Shown here: piece after piece, positions 19,380 to 32,000 of the stretch
How positions within the stretch are numbered: the stretch's first letter is position 1
Layout: each line of letters starts with the position of its first letter
Source: an uncultured bacterium
GTDB lineage: Bacteria > Pseudomonadota > Gammaproteobacteria > Burkholderiales > Burkholderiaceae_E
Assembly: GCA_903866395.1 (NCBI GenBank)
Contig: CAIPNM010000371.1
Coordinates: 5,787-37,786 of the forward strand
Direction: 5' to 3'
DNA: 32,000 nt
Translations under genes and position numbers: made by a program
Notes under the pieces: model-generated
What the model saw: the letters and a program-made list of their open reading frames with translations, nothing else
Database searches by the model: none
What the model was told of the DNA's origin: nothing

Positions 19380-19618
19380 ATCCGTTCGGCGATCGCAGGT
19401 TTCCCGAGCCCTGGATGCAGCCGCACCAGGCCCGCCGGGCTCCGCCAACCGATGATGAGAACGCACTGGCCGCATCCATCGAGGCTGCGTTTGCGGCGGG
19501 GGTGTGGGATCTTGCAGGCTTGGTCGCGCGCTTGAACGCCGATGGTCTGCGCACGCCGGCCGGCGAGCCCTGGACCGAGGCGCGCTACCGCGATGTCATG
19601 GCCCGACTGGGTCGCTGA
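19376..19618 (+). CDS. Small protein with a recombinase-domain-like helix-turn-helix segment (function unknown)
   Basis: The 80-aa ORF starts in an ATGA overlap with the upstream stop and has strong GC3 bias. The C-terminal LAGLVARLNADGLRTPAGEPWTEARYRDVMARLG resembles the Ln-x2-Gi-x-T-x2-G-x2-W-x5-V-x2-iL segment of serine-recombinase 'recombinase' domains. No catalytic recombinase domain is present. Confidence 0.6.
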   Translation: MNPFGDRRFPEPWMQPHQARRAPPTDDENALAASIEAAFAAGVWDLAGLVARLNADGLRTPAGEPWTEARYRDVMARLGR

Positions 19619-19625
19619 GGGACAC

Positions 19626-20696
19626 ATGCCCACCGATCCCACCGATCAAGAGATCGAGACCCTGCTTCGTATGGGGCTGCGTAACCGCTGGCATCCGCTT
19701 TGTCCGTCGCATTTTGTGACCGATCGACCCGTGTCGCTGTATCGGCTCGGGCTCAAGCTCGTGCTGTGGCGCGACGCTTCAGGAACAGTTTGCGTGCAGG
19801 ATGATCACTGCCCGCATCGCGGCGCGCCGCTCTCCCTAGGGCGTCACCTGGGCGACCGGCTCGCGTGTGCCTATCATGGCGTGGAGGTGTCCACAACCGG
19901 CAAGGTGCTGTCGGTGCCGGGCAGTCCAGGCTGCAGGCTTGAAGGGCAGATGGCAGTTCGCACCTATCCTGCGCGCGAACTGAAAGGGGCAATCTTTGCC
20001 TACGTGGGCGATTCGCTTCATCCGGAACCGTGTGCGTTCGAGCCGCCGGAGCAGCTGGCCTCCGACGAATACGAAGCATTTCTCTGCTACGCCGAATGGC
20101 GAACCGCTTACCGCTATCTGATCGACAACAATCTCGATCCCATGCACGGCAGCTTTCTGCATCGGCAGTCACATTCCATGGCGGTGGGCGATGTCCGCGC
20201 AAATTTTCAGGTGCGCGATACCGCGAGCGGGTTTCGCTTCGAGAAGGTCACGCAGCGTGATGTGAATTTCGACTGGAGCGAGTGGTGTGACACCGGTGCC
20301 CTCTACGCGCGGCTGGAAATCCCCTATCCCAGATCGGGCGGACCCGGCGGCAACTTCGGCATCATCTTCATGTCCACGCCTATCTCCGACACGCTCTGCG
20401 CAAACTTCTTCTGGCGTAATCGCCGCGTGCAGGGTTGGGAGCGTGACACCTGGCGTTTTCTTTACCGGAACCGGCTCGAGGCCCGGCACTGGCAGGTGCT
20501 TGAGCAGGATCGTGCAATGCTCGAGGCCGTTGAACCCGATGCTAACCAGAACGAGTGCTTCTACGACCATGATGTGGGGGTTGCGCGCGTGCGCCGCTGG
20601 ATGCGGGAACGCGCAATTGAACAGCTGCGGGCGCTGAACGCGGCTGGTGCGCGCAAGCCCTGGGAGCGACGCGCTGCCGCAGGAGTTTCAACATGA
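19626..20696 (+). CDS. Rieske [2Fe-2S] non-heme-iron oxygenase, alpha (catalytic) subunit, alpha-only (KshA/phthalate-family-like) type
   Basis: SD GAGGGA precedes ATG 19626. The Rieske motif is CPHRGAPLSLGRHLGDRLACAYHG (C-x-H-x17-C-x2-H). The mononuclear iron motif is NNLDPMHGSFLHRQSH (D-x2-H-x4-H). No beta subunit, ferredoxin or reductase gene is in the window. Confidence 0.85.
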   Translation: MPTDPTDQEIETLLRMGLRNRWHPLCPSHFVTDRPVSLYRLGLKLVLWRDASGTVCVQDDHCPHRGAPLSLGRHLGDRLACAYHGVEVSTTGKVLSVPGSPGCRLEGQMAVRTYPARELKGAIFAYVGDSLHPEPCAFEPPEQLASDEYEAFLCYAEWRTAYRYLIDNNLDPMHGSFLHRQSHSMAVGDVRANFQVRDTASGFRFEKVTQRDVNFDWSEWCDTGALYARLEIPYPRSGGPGGNFGIIFMSTPISDTLCANFFWRNRRVQGWERDTWRFLYRNRLEARHWQVLEQDRAMLEAVEPDANQNECFYDHDVGVARVRRWMRERAIEQLRALNAAGARKPWERRAAAGVST

Positions 20697-21099: not shown

Positions 21100-23085
21100 A
21101 TGACCCACTTGCCGCCCGACCTGCTGCGCTTTAAGGACCGTATCCTGTTTCTCTCAGAGGACCCGGACAAAGTCGCATTACAACTCGCCGGCCAGGCGCT
21201 CGCCCGTGAAGCGGCGGGCACGCTTCGCGACAACGTCTCCACTGACGAGATCACACCCGTGCCGGCCATGACCATATGGGACGACCGGCTGGGCCGTATC
21301 CCTTACACCGGCTTTAAGGCCGGGCAGCGCCTGCCGATCGGGCGCGATGCGATTCGCGACGCCGGTATCGAGGTGGTGGTGGCTGGCGCACGCTATGGCA
21401 AGGGGTCTTCGCGCGAGCATAGTCCGGCGGCCGAGCGGGCGGCAGGTGTTCGCCTGGTGATTGCCGAAAGCTTCGAGCGCATTTACAGGCAGAACGCTGA
21501 CAATATCGGTCTCCTCACCTCCACCGATTTCGGGCTGATTGAACGGATCCGTCGCGGTGAGCCGATCGCGCTTTCTGAACTGCTCGCTGACCGCGATCAG
21601 CTCGCAGCCGCCATTGTTCGCGCGGGCGGACTGATCGAGTTCGGTCAGCGCCATCTGCGCTCGGTGAGCCCGCAACCGATGGCGGCCTCGGGTGACGCTC
21701 CCCCTGCGCGGACGCTCTTCGAAAAAATCATCGAGCGCAATCTGCTTGCAACCCCGGTGAGCGCTCAGGCGGTGCATCCTGGCGCCGGGGTGTTTGTACA
21801 CGCCGACTGGCGCTTCATCATTGAGTACTACGCGGGCATGGCCATTCATATGCTGGAGCGCCGCTTTGGCAGCGCGCTCTCGCTTGTGGACCCTGAACGT
21901 ATCGTGATGTTCGAAGATCACACCTCCTATGCCGAGGAAAGCACGGTGCATGTTCGACTGGGGCTGCTCTCCCAGGTGCGCGAGATGTGCGAGGTGCAGC
22001 GCAATTTTGCCGAACGCCATCAGCTGAAGTTCTTTCGCACGCTGCCCGAAGACGAGGCGGCCGCCGATGAGGGTCGGCATGTGGCGGGTATTTCTCACGC
22101 TGTGATGTCTGAGCAGTTCGCGCTGCCCGGCCAGCTCATCGTGGGCACCGATTCGCATACGCCGCATAGCGGCGCGCTCGGGTGCGTGGCGATCGGTGTA
22201 GGCACGACCGATATGGCCAACGCCTTCGTCACCGGGGCGATCCGGCTCACCATTCCCGACACGATTCGGGTCGAATTCATGGGGCGTCTGCGACCCGGCG
22301 TCACGGCCAAGGACGCGGTGTTGCATCTGCTGTCGCAGCCGGCCATCCGGGCGGGTGGGGCGCTGGGCAAGGTGTTTGAATTCTGTGGTGAGGCGGTTCG
22401 GGCCATGGATACCGACGAACGGGCCACGCTCACCAACATGGTGGCCGAGCTCGGTGGACTCACTGGGCTGGTCGAGCCCGACGACGAAACCGTCCGCTAC
22501 CTGAAGGAGCGCCGCGGTATCGACTTCCAAATCGAAAGCTGGATGCGCAGTGACCCCGACGCGCCCGTTGCGGAGCATCTGCGGATCGATTGCGCCGAGC
22601 TCGGGCCGATGCTGGCGCGGCCCGGCGATCCGGGTAACGGCCTCGCAATGGCTGAATTGGCTGCACGGGTGCCGATCACCATCGCCTACGGGGGCTCGTG
22701 CACCGGCGGCAAGCGCGCCGATTTCGATCATTATTTTGCGGTGCTGCGCTGGGCCTTCGATCGCGGGCTCAAAGTGGCGCCTGGGGTGCAGCTCTTCCTG
22801 CAGTTCGGCACCACGGCCGTCCGCGACTATTGCATCGCCCGCGGTTACATGCCGGTGTTTGAATGGTCGGGCGCGAGGCTGTTGCAGCCTTCCTGCGGCG
22901 CCTGTGCCAACTGCGGCCCGGGTTCCTCGGTGAGTGCCGAGCAGGTGACCGTGAGCGCAATCAACCGCAATTTCCCTGGCCGTAGCGGGCCGGGTCAGGT
23001 GTGGCTCGCGAGCCCGCCCACGGTCATTGCGAGTGCAATCGCGGGCGAACTGATGTCGTTCGAGGGACTGCAGGCTCGTCACTGA
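21100..23085 (+). CDS. Aconitase-family hydro-lyase, single chain with the LeuD-like swivel domain N-terminal to the LeuC-like domains (order 4-1-2-3)
   Basis: Residues 1 to about 190 carry NVSTDEITP, GARYGKGSSREHSPAAERAAGVRLVIAESFERIYRQNADNIGL (small-subunit/swivel motifs). Residues from about 200 to 661 carry GTDSHTPHSGALGCVAIGVGTTDMA, GGSCTGGK, PSCGACANCGPG (three cluster Cys) and AINRNFPGRSG. All canonical catalytic motifs are intact. Confidence 0.85.
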   Translation: MTHLPPDLLRFKDRILFLSEDPDKVALQLAGQALAREAAGTLRDNVSTDEITPVPAMTIWDDRLGRIPYTGFKAGQRLPIGRDAIRDAGIEVVVAGARYGKGSSREHSPAAERAAGVRLVIAESFERIYRQNADNIGLLTSTDFGLIERIRRGEPIALSELLADRDQLAAAIVRAGGLIEFGQRHLRSVSPQPMAASGDAPPARTLFEKIIERNLLATPVSAQAVHPGAGVFVHADWRFIIEYYAGMAIHMLERRFGSALSLVDPERIVMFEDHTSYAEESTVHVRLGLLSQVREMCEVQRNFAERHQLKFFRTLPEDEAAADEGRHVAGISHAVMSEQFALPGQLIVGTDSHTPHSGALGCVAIGVGTTDMANAFVTGAIRLTIPDTIRVEFMGRLRPGVTAKDAVLHLLSQPAIRAGGALGKVFEFCGEAVRAMDTDERATLTNMVAELGGLTGLVEPDDETVRYLKERRGIDFQIESWMRSDPDAPVAEHLRIDCAELGPMLARPGDPGNGLAMAELAARVPITIAYGGSCTGGKRADFDHYFAVLRWAFDRGLKVAPGVQLFLQFGTTAVRDYCIARGYMPVFEWSGARLLQPSCGACANCGPGSSVSAEQVTVSAINRNFPGRSGPGQVWLASPPTVIASAIAGELMSFEGLQARH

Positions 23086-25728: not shown

Positions 25729-28700
25729 ATGATCGCGAGCCTCATTCGGGCGGCGCTCGGCCAGCGCCTGATCGTCATCGTCCTGTCGCTGGTGCTGGTG
25801 GCCTTTGGCGTTCGCGAGGCGCTTCGCCTGTCGGTCGATGCGTTTCCTGACGTCACCAACGTGCAGGTACAGATTGCCACCGAGGCCGTGGGCCGCTCGC
25901 CCGAGGAAATCGAACGCTTCGTCACCGTGCCGCTTGAAATCGCCATGACGGGGCTACCGGGGCTGGTGGAGATGCGCTCCCTCAACAAGAGCGGGCTGTC
26001 GATCATCACGCTCGTCTTTACCGATCAGACCGATGTGTATTTCGCGCGTCAGATGGTGACCGAGCGCCTGATCGAAGTGACACCGCGAATGCAGGCGGGA
26101 ATCGTGCCGGTGCTGGGCCCAGTGTCCACAGGCTTGGGCGAGGTGTACCAATACACCATCGATCATCCCGATGATGGGCAGCGTGCGCTCACCGAACAGG
26201 AACTCGCCGAGCGGCGCGCCGTACAGGACTGGGTGGTGCGACCCCTGCTTCGCTCGATCCCCGGCGTGGCGGAAATCAATTCTCAGGGCGGTTATGTGCG
26301 CCAGTATCAGGTGCAGGTCGATCCGGGCCGACTGTTCCACTTCCGTATGTCGGTCCAGCAGGTGGTGCAGGCCATTGCCGCCAACAACGCCAATTCCAGC
26401 GGCGGCATCCTGCCTCGTGCCTCTGAACAGTTTCTCATTCAGGGTGTGGGCCTCATTCGCACGGTAGACGACATTGCCAGCATCGTGATCCGTGAAGATG
26501 CTGGTGTGCCGGTGTTTGTTCGTGATGTGGCAAGCGTCAGCATCGGCTCCGAAGTCCGTCAGGGGGCCATCGTGAAGGGCGGCTACACCGAGTCGGTCGC
26601 GGGCATCGTCCTCATGATGCGCGGCGGCAACGCCAAGGAAATCGTGGGCCGCATCAAGGATCGCGTCGATGAGATCAATGCCAAGGGCATGCTGCCGGGC
26701 GGACTGAAGATCGTTCCCTTTTACGACCGGACCGACCTGGTTGACGCCGCGCTCTGGACGGTCGGCAAGGTGCTGATCGAGGGCATCTTGCTGGTGGTCG
26801 TGATCCTGTTCATTTTTCTGGGCGATGTGCGCTCTAGCCTCATCGTGGTGGCCACGATCATCATCGCGCCACTCACCACCTTCATCGTGATGAACCGCTA
26901 CGGTATCTCGGCGAACCTCATGTCCCTGGGAGGGCTGGCCATTGCCATCGGTCTGATGGTCGATGCCACGGTGGTGGTGGTCGAAAACGTCTACCTGAAG
27001 CTTGGTGAGTACGTGCCCGGAGGGAAGTCCCGCCGACGCATTGTGTTCGAAGCCACCACGGAGGTGGCAACGCCCACCATCTTCGGCATCGCCATCATCA
27101 TTCTCGTGTTTCTGCCCCTCATGACGCTGCAGGGCATTGAGGGCAAGATGTTTGCGCCGCTTGCGCTCACCATCGCCATCGCGCTGGCGGTTTCGCTGGT
27201 GGTGTCACTGCTTCTCTCTCCGGTGCTGTGCTCGTTTTTCCTCAAAGGAGGGGGCGACCACGAAACCTGGCTCATTGCTTTCCTCAAGCGCCGCTATACC
27301 CCGTTGCTTGATGCCGCGCTGGGTCTTCCCTGGGTCACCGTGGCCGCGGCGATGGCGCTCCTTGCGGCAGCCGTCGGGTTATTTCCGCTCCTCGGTAAAT
27401 CCTTCATGCCGATCATGAAAGAGGGAGCGCTCACGCCGCAGATCAATCGGGTACCCAGCATTTCGCTGGAAGAGTCGCTACGCATCGAGATGGATGCGAT
27501 GAAGCGAATTGCCGCAGTGCCGGGCGTGAAGATGGTGGTCTCCAAGCTTGGCCGTGGCGAATCGCCCGCCGACCCGGCAGGTCCCAACGAGTCTGATCCT
27601 ATCGTGCTGCTCGACCCGAAATCCGGCCGCAGTCAGGATGAAATCGACGAAGACATCCGGCAACGCCTGTCCACCATCCCGGGGGTACAGATCGTGCTCT
27701 CGCAGCCGATTGCCGAGCGCGTTGACGAAATGGTCACGGGCGTACGCTCGCAGCTTGCCATCAAGGTGTTCGGCAACGAGTTGTCTGAGTTGCGACGCAT
27801 CTCCGAAGCGGTGGCCCGGGTGCTGCGATCGGTGCCCGGTTCGCAGGACATCCGGATCGAGCGGTTGTCAGGGCAGCAGTCGCTACAGATTGAAATCGAC
27901 CGATTCGCCATCGCACGCTATGGCCTCAACGTGGCCGACATTCATCAGATCATCGAGTCCGCTGTTGGTGGCAAGGAGGTGACCTCGGTCTATGAAGGCG
28001 AGCGCCGCTATGCGGTCACGGTCCGGTTTCCGCCCGATCGCCGCAACACCATCGAAGCCATCTCGGCGATCAAGGTGCGCAGCCACGATGGAAGCGAAGT
28101 GCCCCTGTCGGCGCTGGCTCGCATTCGGCTGGTCGATGGCCCGGCGCAGCTCTCGCGCGAAGGGGCCAAGCGCAGGGTGGTGGTGGGCGCCGATGTGAAC
28201 GGCCGCGATCTGGGCGGTTTCGTTGCCGAGGTCCGCCAGCGACTGGATGCGGAGGTCCGGCTGCCCGAGGGCTACTACTTCGACTTCGGCGGGCAGTTCG
28301 AGAACATGGAGCGCGCGATGGCAACCCTGTCGGTCATCGTGCCCATCACGGTTGGCGCCATTTTCTTTCTGCTGTTTCTGCTCTTCAATTCGGTCAAGCT
28401 CGCCTCGCTCATCATTCTGGTGCTGCCGTTTGCATCAATTGGCGGCATCTTCGGATTGTTTGTCACGGGCGAATACCTGAGCGTTCCCGCCTCGGTGGGC
28501 TTCATTGCCTTGTGGGGCATCGCAGTGTTGAACGGCGTGGTGCTGGTGACCTGCATCCGACGCCTGCGCGACGACGGCAAGGATGTGGCGTTGGCGGTCC
28601 GCGAAGGCTGCCTGCTTCGCTTTCGCCCGGTGATGATGACCGCCACCGTTGCGCTGCTCGGGCTGGTCCCGTTTCTGTTCGCTACGGGGCCGGGCTCAGA

Positions 28701-28818
28701 GGTTCAGCGCCCACTCGCGGTGGTGGTGATCGGCGGTCTGATCACCTCCACCCTGCTCACCCTGGTTGTGCTGCCTGCGCTCTACCGCTGGTTCGACGAT
28801 CGTCCGCAAGAGCTCTGA
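25729..28818 (+). CDS. Heavy-metal-efflux type RND permease (CusA/CzcA family); metal specificity not assignable
   Basis: The 1029-aa product has N-terminal MIASLIRAALGQRLIVIVLSLVLVAFG...AFPDVTNVQVQI, typical of HME-RND. The TMH4 motif is GGLAIAIGLMVDATVVVVEN. It has a 12-TM/2-large-loop architecture and follows OMF-MFP in czcCBA order. Confidence 0.9.
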   Translation: MIASLIRAALGQRLIVIVLSLVLVAFGVREALRLSVDAFPDVTNVQVQIATEAVGRSPEEIERFVTVPLEIAMTGLPGLVEMRSLNKSGLSIITLVFTDQTDVYFARQMVTERLIEVTPRMQAGIVPVLGPVSTGLGEVYQYTIDHPDDGQRALTEQELAERRAVQDWVVRPLLRSIPGVAEINSQGGYVRQYQVQVDPGRLFHFRMSVQQVVQAIAANNANSSGGILPRASEQFLIQGVGLIRTVDDIASIVIREDAGVPVFVRDVASVSIGSEVRQGAIVKGGYTESVAGIVLMMRGGNAKEIVGRIKDRVDEINAKGMLPGGLKIVPFYDRTDLVDAALWTVGKVLIEGILLVVVILFIFLGDVRSSLIVVATIIIAPLTTFIVMNRYGISANLMSLGGLAIAIGLMVDATVVVVENVYLKLGEYVPGGKSRRRIVFEATTEVATPTIFGIAIIILVFLPLMTLQGIEGKMFAPLALTIAIALAVSLVVSLLLSPVLCSFFLKGGGDHETWLIAFLKRRYTPLLDAALGLPWVTVAAAMALLAAAVGLFPLLGKSFMPIMKEGALTPQINRVPSISLEESLRIEMDAMKRIAAVPGVKMVVSKLGRGESPADPAGPNESDPIVLLDPKSGRSQDEIDEDIRQRLSTIPGVQIVLSQPIAERVDEMVTGVRSQLAIKVFGNELSELRRISEAVARVLRSVPGSQDIRIERLSGQQSLQIEIDRFAIARYGLNVADIHQIIESAVGGKEVTSVYEGERRYAVTVRFPPDRRNTIEAISAIKVRSHDGSEVPLSALARIRLVDGPAQLSREGAKRRVVVGADVNGRDLGGFVAEVRQRLDAEVRLPEGYYFDFGGQFENMERAMATLSVIVPITVGAIFFLLFLLFNSVKLASLIILVLPFASIGGIFGLFVTGEYLSVPASVGFIALWGIAVLNGVVLVTCIRRLRDDGKDVALAVREGCLLRFRPVMMTATVALLGLVPFLFATGPGSEVQRPLAVVVIGGLITSTLLTLVVLPALYRWFDDRPQEL

Positions 28819-28820
28819 AA

Positions 28821-29687
28821 TCAGCGATCCATGCCGTATTCGCGCTGAATGCGCTCGATATCGTCAAATCCGATCAGCTTCTTGAATTGATCCATGCTGG
28901 TCTGCGGCAGGGGCAGGTTGCGCGCGTGCCGGTCTGCGACGAGCTTTGCAAGATTAGCGCGTATGGCGCTCGTGACCGTCATGAGCGGCACCAGCGGGAA
29001 CACCGCAAGCCCGGCGACTGATTCAATATCGGCCGGGCTCAGATCGCGTTCCAGCCAGCCCAGGATCTGCAAGGACAGACGCTTGCCGCAGGCGGCCTGG
29101 AGCCGGCGCAGGTCGTCGATCGATTTCATGGTTTTGGAGATTGGCTGAATCAGATCGGCACCGGCTTCGGCGTAGAGGCAGGCGCGTTCGATGGCTTCCT
29201 CCACGCTGTCGGCGTCGGTGCGCGCAATCACCAGAAAATCACGATCTCGGCGTGTATCGCAGGCGGCACGGATCTTTCGTGCGGCTTCTTCGGCGGGCAA
29301 TACCTCCACCTTGCTCGCTGCGGCCGGGCAGCGCTTGGGGATCAGCTGGTCCTCAAACACAATGCCCGCTACGCCGGCATGCTCGAATTCGCGCACGGTG
29401 CGGATCACGTTGATCACGTTGCCATAGCCTGTGTCGCCGTCAGCGATCACTGGGCGCTTGACCGAATTGACCATGTGACGCACCACGCCCAGATTTTCGG
29501 TCATGGTGTAAAGCTCGACATCGGGCAGGCCGAGGTGCGAGGCCGAGATGCCAAAGCCGGTGGTGAAGACGGCGTCGAATCCGGCCTCGTCGACCAGGCG
29601 AGCCGACAGCGCGTCGTAGGCGCCAGCCGACCATATGGTGCGACCGGCTTCAATGATGTTGCGTAGTGCGCGGGCATGGGTGGTCAT
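28821..29687 (-). CDS. Isocitrate lyase / PEP mutase superfamily enzyme (methylisocitrate-lyase / dimethylmalate-lyase / oxaloacetate-decarboxylase-like)
   Basis: Blocks present: WSAGAYDALSARLVDEAGFDAVFTTGFG, PVIADGDTGYG (Mg2+ site), GVAGIVFEDQLIPKRC and FLVIARTDA. The catalytic loop reads KRCPAA rather than the canonical KRCGH. SD GGAGA lies 7 nt upstream. Confidence 0.8.
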   Translation of the reverse strand: MTTHARALRNIIEAGRTIWSAGAYDALSARLVDEAGFDAVFTTGFGISASHLGLPDVELYTMTENLGVVRHMVNSVKRPVIADGDTGYGNVINVIRTVREFEHAGVAGIVFEDQLIPKRCPAAASKVEVLPAEEAARKIRAACDTRRDRDFLVIARTDADSVEEAIERACLYAEAGADLIQPISKTMKSIDDLRRLQAACGKRLSLQILGWLERDLSPADIESVAGLAVFPLVPLMTVTSAIRANLAKLVADRHARNLPLPQTSMDQFKKLIGFDDIERIQREYGMDR

Positions 29688-29722
29688 TGCGGTCTCCGGA
29701 AGAAAAGGCGTGGGGGGCGGGG

Positions 29723-30235
29723 CTAGGGGGTGGCGGTTACCCGGTGCTTCAGATAGCCGGTGAGACCGCCATGCTCGAGCATGCTGAGATCGGCGCTTGC
29801 GAGGGGCAGAAATGGCAGCGTGGCGCCGCTGCCGAGCACTACCTGCTGGCGGGCCCAGTCGATGGTGAGGGTATCCCAGCGGGTTACCGCCTGGAGGATG
29901 CCCGGGCAGGCAACCATCGGAAACCCCATGCTAATTTCACCGCGCCAGAAACCTGGCGAGAACGATTCGGCGATCAGTGCACGAATGCCCAGATGTCGCA
30001 TGGCGCGAAGCGGCGGGTAGTGGGGATGGCCATAACCGAAGTTCACTCCCCCCACCAGCACGTCGCCGGGGCGCACCTGCTGGGCGAATGTGGGGTCGAA
30101 CTCTTTCATGGCCTGAGCGGCGAGCTCTTCGATATCGGTGATCTTGATGTTTTTGACACCAACGATCTGGTCGACGTCAAAGTCTTCCTGGGGAAAGATC
30201 CAGGCGATCCGGCCGGTGATGTTTTCAAGTGCCAT
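29723..30235 (-). CDS. LeuD-like (type-2 small subunit) aconitase-family swivel-domain protein, divergent
   Basis: The 170-aa product has GRIAWIFPQEDFDVDQIVG in place of the Gk-w-fGD-I-dTD-I-P block. GDVLVGGVNFGYGHPHYPPLRAMRHLGIRALIAESF replaces NFGCGSSREHAP...GI-AVIA-SF. The fold pattern is retained but the GSSREH serine motif is missing. Confidence 0.7.
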   Translation of the reverse strand: MALENITGRIAWIFPQEDFDVDQIVGVKNIKITDIEELAAQAMKEFDPTFAQQVRPGDVLVGGVNFGYGHPHYPPLRAMRHLGIRALIAESFSPGFWRGEISMGFPMVACPGILQAVTRWDTLTIDWARQQVVLGSGATLPFLPLASADLSMLEHGGLTGYLKHRVTATP

Positions 30236-30259
30236 GGTGGGATGGGTGAGGGCGGTTGA

Positions 30260-31531
30260 TCAGACGGCGCTCGCGGCGAGCAGGGGGCGGGGGTCGGCAA
30301 TGCTGCCGGCCACGGCCGAGGCCGCGACCACGGCGGCATTGCAGATGTAGATTTCCGAGTCGGGGCTGCCCATGCGGCCCGGCACATTGAGGGTGCCGGT
30401 CGACACAGCACGCTGGCCCGCGGTCATGGTGCCGATCCGGCCAAAGCAATAGTCGCAGGAGGGCGAGCTGACAAAAGCCCCGGCGTCGGAAAACACCTGA
30501 ATGAGGCCCTCGGCTGCCGCCTGCGACATGATGGCCTGAGAGGTGGGCACGATATGAAGCGATACCCCTGCAGCCACCTGACGTCCGCGAAGCACCTGCG
30601 CCGCGGCGCGGAGGTCTTCCATGCGGCCGCTCGCGCACGAGCCGAGGTAGCCTGCGTGGATGGGCAGTCCGATGAAGTCGGTCAGGTCGCGGGTTCGCGC
30701 CGGGCTGGGCGGAATCACCACGATCGGTTCAAGCGCCGAGATGTCGATCTCGACCACCCGCTCGTAAACCGCGTCAGGGTCGCTGGTGACCGGGTCGAGC
30801 GCGATGCGCGCGCGATCGCGTGCGTAGTCGATCGCTTTCTGGTCGGGGTTGACGATGGCGGTGGTGGCGCCCACGAACATAGCCTGGCCGCAAATCGTCT
30901 GCCGGCCCTCGATGCTCATGGCATCAATCACCGGGCCGCCCAGTTCCAGCACCTTGAAGGCGCACGACGCCGGCCCCATGACCCGGACGATGTGATGGAA
31001 TATGTCGCGCGCCATCACGCCATCGCGCAGCTTGCCGTGGAGATTGACCCGGACCGTTGCGGGGACGCGCAGACTCACCGTCTCTTTGACGAACGCTTCG
31101 AGGAGGTTACGGCGGAGCCCGATGGCAAGCGTGCCGAGCGCCCCGAGTTGGCTGATGTGGCCGTCGAAATGAACTGCGAACGCGCCCGGCGTGGCATAGC
31201 CCAGCTCCGCGCTCACCTGATGCCCGATTCCTTTGCGCTCATAGACCGGAACGCCCTGCTGAGCCCCCCACTGCCGGGTCTGGATGTGAAGCTCCTCTTC
31301 CTTGGGCGTAGCGACCGGCACCATGTGGTCGATGAAAAGCGCGAACCGCTTCGGATCGGTCACCCGGTCAATGCCGAAGTCATCTTTCATCTGCTTGAAG
31401 ATGACATCGGTGTAGCCGGGGAAATCATAGGCGATGACAAAGTCGGGGCGCGCCAGCACTTCATCGCCGGCGTGCACAGCAGGGCGCTGCGCAACGCGCG
31501 CGAGGATTTTTTCGGTGATCGTGAAGCCCAT
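30260..31531 (-). CDS. LeuC/HacA-like (archaeal-type, about 420 aa) aconitase-family large subunit, divergent active site
   Basis: Strong SD GGAGGAACA precedes the start. The N-terminus is MGFTITEKILAR. The cluster Cys motifs LGSCASGRMEDL and SPSCDYCFG are retained. However, HFDGHISQLGALG replaces GTDSHT...GA-G, and GTLNVPGRMG replaces NRNF-GR-G. Confidence 0.8.
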   Translation of the reverse strand: MGFTITEKILARVAQRPAVHAGDEVLARPDFVIAYDFPGYTDVIFKQMKDDFGIDRVTDPKRFALFIDHMVPVATPKEEELHIQTRQWGAQQGVPVYERKGIGHQVSAELGYATPGAFAVHFDGHISQLGALGTLAIGLRRNLLEAFVKETVSLRVPATVRVNLHGKLRDGVMARDIFHHIVRVMGPASCAFKVLELGGPVIDAMSIEGRQTICGQAMFVGATTAIVNPDQKAIDYARDRARIALDPVTSDPDAVYERVVEIDISALEPIVVIPPSPARTRDLTDFIGLPIHAGYLGSCASGRMEDLRAAAQVLRGRQVAAGVSLHIVPTSQAIMSQAAAEGLIQVFSDAGAFVSSPSCDYCFGRIGTMTAGQRAVSTGTLNVPGRMGSPDSEIYICNAAVVAASAVAGSIADPRPLLAASAV

Positions 31532-31694
31532 TGTTCCTCCGCGGTTCGCCCGCCCGGCCGCTGGCCGCTGAACGGGCGGAGCGGAGTGGTCTCATCATGG
31601 CCAACGCCTTGGCGGACGTTGCTTGTCCGGATAGTCTAGCGATAACCCGGGCGCGCGGGGTGTTCGCGGTTCACGCCCGGAGCGCCCCTCATCA

Positions 31695-31721
31695 AAACCG
31701 GTGGTTGATTCGGGGCGATGT
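31695..31721 (+). promoter_or_regulatory. Candidate sigma70-type promoter for the downstream binding-protein gene
   Basis: TTGATT (31695-31700) and TATCAT (31716-31721) are separated by a short 15-nt spacer, about 48 nt upstream of ATG 31770. This was identified by eye only. Confidence 0.2.
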
Positions 31722-31769
31722 CCTTTATCATCCGCGGGCTTGGCAGCTTTTCCCATCAAGGAGACACAC

Positions 31770-32000
31770 ATGTTGAAACGAATTCTGGTCGCGGCCGTCG
31801 CCGCAGCCTGCGCAACGGGCGGTGCCTTTGCGCAGTCCCTCCCCGCTGGCCCCAAGGTCACGGTCACCGCGGTGACCCAGGCCGCCCCCTCCATTCCGCA
31901 ATACACCAAGGTCGACGTGCCGGTGCTGCGCGAGAATATGCCCAAGGCGAGCAACGGCCGCATTGAATTCAATCTGAAGAGCTGGCCCGAGGCTAACGTC
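31770..32000 (+). CDS. Secreted/periplasmic solute-binding protein, 3' end cut by the window edge (family uncertain, possibly TRAP-type)
   Basis: This ORF is absent from the supplied track because it runs off the window. ATG 31770 follows the strong SD AAGGAGA (31758-31764). The signal peptide is MLKRILVAAVAAACATGGAFAQS. The frame stays open for 77 codons to nt 32000 with GC3 bias. Confidence 0.6.
   Translation, partial: MLKRILVAAVAAACATGGAFAQSLPAGPKVTVTAVTQAAPSIPQYTKVDVPVLRENMPKASNGRIEFNLKSWPEANV

Follow-up and report, generated by a model that had tools for sequence, protein, structure and literature searches.

In a 32,000-nucleotide stretch of DNA from an uncultured bacterium of the Burkholderiaceae_E (contig CAIPNM010000371.1; hereafter the window), three adjacent genes on the minus strand (28821-31531) encode a LeuC-like large subunit, a LeuD-like small subunit and a protein of the isocitrate lyase/phosphoenolpyruvate mutase (ICL/PEPM) superfamily. 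Most likely, the trio is a hydratase-lyase catabolic pair, which is a known kind of system; new are the remodelled active sites in a module that is conserved in more than 75 bacterial species. The original prediction, made from the window alone, had proposed a hydratase-lyase module for a new substrate. Of this proposal, the conserved unit, the new specificity and the link to a transporter stand, and the hydratase and lyase reaction types are putative.

Gene order and conservation of the trio

The gene of the large subunit (30260-31531, 423 aa) is followed on the minus strand by the gene of the small, swivel-domain subunit (29723-30235, 170 aa) and by that of the ICL/PEPM-superfamily protein, a putative C-C lyase (28821-29687, 288 aa). 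Gaps of 24 bp and 35 bp separate the genes, and the open reading frames match exactly the order, strand and positions that had been predicted.

When one genome per species was scanned with a sequence pattern, at least 217 loci that encode relatives were identified. This number is a lower bound, because the search pattern was built on the Cys motif of the family itself. The best 80 of the 217 loci were fetched. Their large subunits are 70-98% identical to the protein encoded in the window (the query), and their hosts include Azospirillum, Variovorax, Curvibacter, Acidovorax, Pseudacidovorax, Xenophilus, Hyphomicrobiales, Acetobacteraceae and many metagenome-assembled genomes. Gene context was counted by tblastn on these 80 loci. 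The small-subunit gene immediately follows the large-subunit gene in all 80, and the lyase gene is present in 77, where it usually starts 530-680 bp past the end of the large-subunit gene. In one lineage, the small-subunit and lyase genes are separated by an inserted ABC transporter. Among the lyase-less loci, one is a 3.5-kb contig that ends about 900 bp past the large-subunit gene (L092), and another carries a tctC gene directly 3′ of the small-subunit gene (L038). Together, these data support a single conserved functional unit made up of the three genes.

Active sites of the three proteins

The large subunit belongs to the aconitase family (Pfam PF00330, E = 2e-68). Against the NCBIfam model PRK00402 it scored 368.6 at a cut-off of 385. 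The isopropylmalate isomerase (IPMI)/homoaconitase equivalog models scored were TIGR00170, TIGR02083, NF040615, TIGR02084 and NF040604, and the best equivalog score was 304 versus a cut-off of 611 (LEU2). None of the three proteins of the trio attained a curated cut-off of any NCBIfam model, broad subfamily models included. Among solved structures, the large subunit is closest to isomerases, namely the IPMI of Methanocaldococcus jannaschii (4nqy, 2e-70) and homoaconitase (HACN, 1e-61).

Motif changes were read from HMMER alignments to solved structures, with numbering counted along pig aconitase (1c96) and Escherichia coli PrpB (1mum). In the large subunit, the cluster ligands C299, C359 and C362 are kept (aconitase C358, C421 and C424) and are invariant among orthologues. 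Also kept are D68-H69, which correspond to aconitase D100-H101 as mapped via the M. jannaschii IPMI, and H104 (H147), D123 and H125 (D165 and H167), N382 (N448) and R386 (R452). Five aconitase positions are substituted: S166 by G124, N258 by G215, E262 by F219, N446 by T380 and R447 by L381. As had been predicted, GADSHT reads HFDGHI and SNRNFRGRQG reads GTLNVPGRMG while all three Cys are retained; the changes at N258 and E262 come in addition. The Cys motif is C-D-Y-C, compared with C-G/S-x-C in archaeal-type IPMI and homoaconitase. According to the aconitase literature (Lauble, Zheng, Beinert, Kennedy, Stout), the residues kept here reportedly deal with the Fe-bound water or hydroxyl. Those lost, across both subunits, are said to be the proton-abstracting Ser, its oxyanion partner, carboxylate binders and residues of the cluster shell.

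The small subunit matched LeuD/HacB structures in phmmer searches (3vba, 4e-24; 1v7l, 2e-21; 2pkp, 5e-18). It scored 18.5 against Pfam Aconitase_C, under the gathering threshold of 22.8, and its best equivalog score was 84.6 at a cut-off of 230 (HacB). The canonical GCGSSREH reads GYGHPH-Y, within the stretch N65-F-G-Y-G-H70-P-H72-Y-P, which is 100% conserved in 80 sequences. The catalytic Ser, the adjacent Ser and the Arg (aconitase S642-S643-R644) are all gone, and the alignments to solved structures thus bear out the predicted loss of the catalytic Ser motif.

The third protein is a member of PF13714 (E = 3e-44). It scored 173 against the prpB model TIGR02317 (cut-off 354), 149 against NF008455 (cut-off 353) and 123 against TIGR02320 (cut-off 320). 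The best sequence match, over the full length, is the petal death protein (1zlp, 3e-39); 3eoo, 5unc, 2dua and 1mum were aligned as well. The Mg site is kept (D56, D83, D85 and E112 for PrpB D58, D85, D87 and E115), as is R156 (R158). The gating loop is P117-K-R-C120-P121-A-A, so that K(K/R)CGH has become KRCPA, in line with the KRCPAA reported in the original prediction. Across orthologues, K118-R119-C120 and P121 are invariant and the next residue is A or I, in place of PrpB Gly124-His125. The segment of methylisocitrate lyase (MICL) Glu188 reads Q181-P-I-S-[KR] with a two-residue insertion and contains no acidic residue under either plausible alignment. The S-G-G-G oxyanion loop of ICL/PEPM lyases reads T-T-G-F-G. 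The loop signature of P-C enzymes is absent, since the query has E-D-Q...K-R-C-P where 5unc has EDKRFPKVNS and 2dua EDKTFPKDTS.

An AlphaFold2 model of the third protein (pLDDT 91.5, pTM 0.90) was compared with solved structures by Foldseek. Matches were methylisocitrate lyases, PEP mutases, phosphonopyruvate hydrolase, petal death protein and oxaloacetate acetylhydrolase (OAH), with TM scores of 0.85-0.90 to lyases and P-C enzymes alike at 25-32% identity. As the TM scores are equally high to lyases, PEP mutases and phosphonopyruvate hydrolase at this identity, the model places the protein in a subfamily of its own rather than among divergent PrpBs.

To follow these changes through the family, 77-81 orthologues per protein with 50-99% identity were aligned. 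Column counts in all three proteins showed that the changed positions are 100% invariant. Invariant elements are H-F-D-G-H, G215, F219, C-D-Y-C and T-L-N in the large subunit (81 sequences) and P-K-R-C-P and Q-P-I-S-[KR] in the third protein, and the retained residues on the water side (D68-H69, H104, D123, H125, the three Cys and R386) are also 100% kept. The Mg ligands and R156 of the third protein are likewise invariant. The ratio of nonsynonymous to synonymous substitution rates (dN/dS), determined with 86-94%-identical relatives, was 0.05-0.08 for the large subunit, 0.11-0.19 for the small subunit and 0.06-0.09 for the lyase. Because the changed positions are invariant in 77-81 orthologues and dN/dS lies at 0.05-0.19, the motif changes hold throughout the family, are maintained by purifying selection and do not reflect decay. 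The coordinated divergence noticed in the window is thereby extended to the family. With changed residues so invariant and the three genes adjacent in 77 of 80 species loci, the pattern is not a product of chance.

Transporters, neighbouring genes and paralogues

A divergent intergenic region of 238 bp (31532-31769, no strand), the presumed promoter/operator, separates the trio from an operon for a tripartite ATP-independent periplasmic (TRAP) transporter that is transcribed in the opposite direction. It contains only weak imperfect inverted repeats; no convincing match to a sigma-70 promoter, and none above shuffle expectation, was found in these 238 bp. The binding-protein gene predicted at 31770 encodes a DctP-type TRAP receptor (PF03480, 1.6e-32; NF037995 TRAP_S1, 101.6 at a cut-off of 50). 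Its 5′ part lies at 31770-32000 on the plus strand, and the full-length gene (356 aa) runs past the end of the window. A dctQ gene (PF04290, 4.5e-16) follows on the contig, and contigs with 98% identity show the order DctPQM and then further transporters. No regulator gene adjoins the trio or the TRAP operon in the query lineage. On the other side, the gene of an RND permease (25729-28818, plus strand) converges on the lyase gene, with stop codons 2 bp apart; no terminator-like site was found between the two genes (28816-28823).

Among the 80 loci, receptors are of the Peripla_BP_6 type (HAAT-ABC) in 35, of the TctC type in 31 and of the DctP type in six, the latter in the query lineage only. 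A Dpp-type ABC system lies beside a 59%-identical trio (L022). That four unrelated uptake systems replace one another around constant enzyme genes is a pattern characteristic of catabolic modules for imported compounds. Binding-protein-dependent uptake genes thus recur while the transporter type is exchanged around fixed genes, as predicted by a role in substrate supply, which had been suggested for the gene at 31770. The best matches of the receptors to solved structures (TRAP, 2pfz/2pfy at E = 7e-22; HAAT, 3lop at 2e-31) are too distant for a ligand to be transferred. An IclR regulator is present in 48 of the 80 loci, and no biosynthetic partner genes are present.

Alphaproteobacterial operons are extended upstream by a metallo-beta-lactamase (MBL)-fold hydrolase (31/80) and a FAD_binding_4 oxidase (20/80), and Azospirillum loci carry an additional gene for a GlcD-like oxidase downstream. 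In one such operon (L040, 4250-16806), with iclR divergent, the trio is preceded by genes for a lactonase-like MBL-fold hydrolase and a 529-aa FAD oxidase and is followed by those for a HAAT-type ABC transporter and a GlcD-like FAD oxidase. The hydrolase falls into the lactonase/methyl-parathion-hydrolase group and the FAD enzyme into the D-lactate-dehydrogenase/GlcD/VAO group. Since both are far under equivalog cut-offs, they point to a lactone-like precursor and to nothing more specific. Their presence is consistent with a ring-opened, oxidised precursor that is funnelled into the enzyme pair. Beyond the extended operon (L040 and L048-L072, in Azospirillum and other Alphaproteobacteria), genes for an AMP-binding ligase and a double alpha/beta-hydrolase were observed.

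Leucine and methylcitrate enzymes are encoded elsewhere in the query genome. It contains two canonical LeuC genes (787 and 663 bits with TIGR00170, cut-off 560) and, on another contig (C502), a canonical PrpB with KRCGH together with PrpC and AcnA. As both sets occur with canonical motifs, our data support that the trio is neither the leucine nor the methylcitrate enzyme set.

The large subunit was also placed among its wider relatives. Nearly all of the approximately 40 LeuC-like clusters nearest to the query (50%-identity representatives) are without GxDSHT and NRNFxGR. Some of these clusters also lack a Cys ligand, for example P0128 (FDFC) and P0168 (EGQE), among the hits P0127-P0161 and others. 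In a FastTree phylogeny of 130-odd sequences, the non-canonical proteins are nested within the short archaeal-type IPMI/HACN-like family, and the query subclade comprises about 13 clusters with the signature H-[FHY]-D-x-H, C-[DN]-x-C and T-L-N-x-x-G-R. From this placement, the remodelling is old and part of a wider, apparently unexplored LeuC-like radiation. The divergence of the trio is thus real, but its large subunit is less singular than the original prediction had implied.

Deeper relatives of the large subunit (39-43% identity; L111 and L112) again adjoin PEPM/ICL genes, whose loops differ (KRCGA, or no Cys). A 45%-identical relative whose small subunit has GYGHPH (L024-L026) lies alongside a gene resembling isopropylmalate synthase (IPMS), citramalate synthase or homocitrate synthase (HCS), which scored 336 with TIGR02090 versus a cut-off of 485. 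On these metagenome contigs (L024, 5806-11203), the genes encode GntR, the synthase-like protein, the LeuC-like protein (45%), the LeuD-like protein (GYGHPH) and a DASS carrier. This synthase-linked relative points to 2-substituted malates as the substrate class of the subclade. An order of synthase, dehydratase and exporter could also make and export an unsaturated diacid.

Further relatives were observed in other contexts. A 43%-identical LeuCD-like pair (L109, 819-8105) occurs with two acyl-CoA dehydrogenases, a family III CoA-transferase, IclR and a FAA-family hydrolase, and no PEPM-family gene is present at this locus. In the query genome, a 2.1-kb contig (C475, L006) carries a gene pair truncated by the contig ends: that of a canonical ICL-family lyase (KKCGH) and, immediately after it, that of a canonical bacterial-type LeuC (GDSHT, NRNFVGRQG). 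It represents a second pairing of the hydratase-lyase type in this genome. Another contig (C390; L008, 4330-7921) encodes a second non-canonical LeuCD-like pair, with CYDMHC and ATNHAGRFG in the large and GCGKPH in the small subunit. This pair is preceded by a Bug/TctC receptor and an amidase, is followed by a thiamine-diphosphate enzyme, and belongs to a sister subclade with TRN[DE]PGR or ATNxAGR. Finally, the window itself contains a gene (21100-23085, plus strand) for a single-chain aconitase-family protein of 661 aa, in which the swivel domain (Aconitase_C) is N-terminal to domains 1-3. This protein has canonical GTDSH and NRNFPGR motifs. Its gene lies beside that of a Rieske/VanA-like oxygenase (19542-20696) and is kept beside the RND pump in contigs with 98% identity.

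Proposed function, alternatives and relation to known systems

With moderate confidence, we propose that the trio is a two-step catabolic module, in which an Fe-S (de)hydratase and then a retro-aldol lyase would act on an imported substituted maleate/malate-type acid. The acid would enter the cell via the divergent TRAP transporter. The LeuC/LeuD-like pair would bind a [4Fe-4S] cluster and add or remove water at a C=C bond adjoining a carboxylate, with H70 or H72 of the small subunit abstracting the proton in place of the canonical Ser. The half of the aconitase site that deals with water would still operate on this cluster. Selection of the new acid could be brought about by the remodelled pocket, which is more hydrophobic and lacks two carboxylate-binding Arg. 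From this step a substituted malate, a 2-hydroxy acid, would emerge, and the ICL-family enzyme would split it in a Mg-dependent retro-aldol reaction, whereby C120 may protonate the leaving carbanion. A 2-oxo acid of the pyruvate or glyoxylate type and a carboxylic acid would then pass into central metabolism; since a transporter and these enzymes are usually all that the locus contains, the products must belong to central metabolism. Compounds of the 2-substituted malate class would be made by the synthase at the L024-type locus and cleaved by the lyase at the query locus. The two reaction types, their order, the His base and an alkyl- or aryl-substituted maleate/malate-type substrate class are what we infer from the gene unit and the residues that are kept and lost.

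Several points weigh against this proposal. The universally conserved catalytic Ser and its partner Arg are absent, and we know of no aconitase-family hydro-lyase with a His base. As the residues that hydrogen-bond the cluster (N258 and N446) and the partner of His167 (E262) are changed, the type of cluster or its chemistry could differ. The third protein is without MICL His125 and Glu188, and over its C-terminal half the best alignment is with phosphonopyruvate hydrolase. In one complete genome (L035), no cognate lyase adjoins the LeuCD-like pair, and the paralogues elsewhere are only 41-53% identical. Finally, the loss of two carboxylate-binding Arg fits poorly with a dicarboxylate of the maleate/malate type and is the main discomfort for any dicarboxylate model. 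The genome of L035 measures 3.0 Mb and encodes at least eight PEPM/ICL-family paralogues, and its LeuCD-like pair is 86% identical to the query.

A more far-reaching possibility, which we hold only tentatively, is that the LeuCD-like pair founds a class of the aconitase superfamily with a small-subunit His base and a substrate with fewer carboxylates than that of any known member. Its PEPM partner would then catalyse a C-C or C-X cleavage unlisted for its superfamily, and the trio would represent a new catabolic route, perhaps for an acid of plant or lactone origin, in Proteobacteria of soil and rhizosphere. It is unlikely, in our view, that the chemistry is new to both superfamilies, with a heteroatom-bearing or mono-carboxylate substrate (for example, through loss of an amine or thiol, or through conversion of an acid that stems from a lactone or lactam), which would make both "hydratase" and "lyase" misnomers. 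Nine canonical active-site positions are indeed replaced, and H121, D360, Y361, H70, H72 and Y73 are new invariant residues. In addition, the TRAP receptor is closest, among solved structures, to DctP6/7 of Bordetella (2pfz/2pfy), which bind pyroglutamate, and the HAAT- and Dpp-type receptors of other lineages usually take amino-acid-like ligands. However, this is an argument from absence, and the residues kept are exactly those for water or hydroxyl at the cluster and for a 2-oxy-carboxylate at the Mg.

A true isomerase, which would convert a tertiary into a secondary hydroxyl (2- to 3-substituted malate) ahead of an ICL-like lyase giving glyoxylate and a longer acid, is also unlikely and ranks behind the reading with new chemistry. 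It would agree with the isomerases as nearest solved relatives, and the relative beside the IPMS/HCS-like synthase recalls 2-oxoacid elongation, in which an isomerase follows a synthase. The hydrophobic residues L381, F219, V383, Y68 and Y73 would suit an alkyl or aryl side chain. Isomerisation requires two binding modes and both carboxylate sites, however, and the equivalents of R447, S166, R644 and S643 are lost here, yet kept in every characterised isomerase including IPMI with its hydrophobic substrate. Less probable again is a dehydration of a tartrate-like 2,3-dihydroxy acid by the Fe-S enzyme to an oxaloacetate-type 2-oxo acid, followed by a hydrolase or decarboxylase-like PEPM protein of the OAH, PA4872 or petal-death type in place of a retro-aldol lyase. 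The petal death protein, which also cleaves alpha-keto acids, is the best sequence match of the third protein, and in structural comparison OAH and PA4872 match comparably well. The loss of Glu188 and His125 argues for an altered acid/base apparatus of the lyase, and the GlcD-type FAD oxidases of the extended operons could oxidise a hydroxy-acid product. Against this stands the invariant Cys of the gating loop, a mark of C-C lyases, and we know of no tartrate-type dehydratase in the aconitase family. Very improbable is that the trio consists of decaying or catalytically inactive paralogues of leuCD and prpB, or that it serves phosphonate biosynthesis, although all three proteins score under the curated cut-offs of every NCBIfam equivalog and database names include "carboxyvinyl-carboxyphosphonate phosphorylmutase". 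Decay to pseudogenes is ruled out by the dN/dS values, the invariant active-site columns and the confident predicted fold. A phosphonate role is ruled out by the EDQ...KRC loop, which is not the EDK...N-S of the PEP mutase 5unc, and by gene context: no phosphonate genes lie in the trio neighbourhoods, which consist of transporter and IclR.

No characterised orthologue or functional assignment was found in curated models, in database names or in full-text searches of the literature on aconitase/ICL pairs and maleate-type hydratases. The names given to orthologues in cultured strains are all generic or transferred by homology, and the annotations "3-isopropylmalate dehydratase", "methylisocitrate lyase" and "carboxyvinyl-carboxyphosphonate phosphorylmutase" are almost certainly wrong for these genes. 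The aconitase superfamily is regarded as marked by its Ser base and Arg shell, and the ICL-type lyases by their Cys-Gly-His loop and Glu188. Both sets are replaced, always in the same manner, by a family present in at least 217 species genomes, whose members occur as an enzyme pair accompanied by a transporter. This family is therefore a clearly delimited object for the search for new enzymes, from which an unfamiliar form of catalysis in Fe-S hydro-lyases could emerge, along with a carbon source so far overlooked in Azospirillum, Variovorax and freshwater Burkholderiales.

Among known systems, the archaeal-type IPMI/citramalate isomerase (4nqy/3vba) and homoaconitase (HacAB, 4kp2/2pkp) are the closest solved relatives of both subunits. 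They share with the query the length, the domain layout, the three Cys ligands and the D-H, H and D-x-H residues on the water side, whereas the equivalents of S166, N258, E262, N446, R447 and S642-S643-R644 are all replaced in the query. With PrpB, petal death protein and OAH, the third protein has in common the TIM barrel (TM 0.85-0.89), the Mg ligands, R158 and K-R-C in the gating loop. It differs from them in an identity of only 25-31%, the exchange of Gly124-His125 for Pro-Ala and the replaced Glu188 segment. A LeuCD-like two-subunit enzyme with a catabolic role is also found in HbzIJ, the maleate hydratase of the gentisate pathway of Pseudomonas alcaligenes. HbzIJ serves as a hydratase only, and to our knowledge no lyase partner has been described for it.

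DmdAB and Dml of the nicotinate fermentation of Eubacterium barkeri, which together with HbzIJ are the closest functional analogues, can be compared with the trio by description only. The query host is an aerobic proteobacterium, and the trio is accompanied by transporter and IclR genes and not by nicotinate genes. Its lyase is without the CGH loop and Glu188, and its small subunit scores just under the cut-off of the LeuD/DmdB model TIGR02087 (105.8 versus 108.95). In the DmdAB-Dml pathway, a substituted maleate is hydrated and then cleaved in a retro-aldol reaction to a 2-oxo acid and an acid. Both systems are alike in that the genes for a two-subunit Fe-S enzyme of the LeuCD type adjoin the gene of an ICL/PEPM-superfamily enzyme, and the proposed reading of the trio follows the logic of this pathway.

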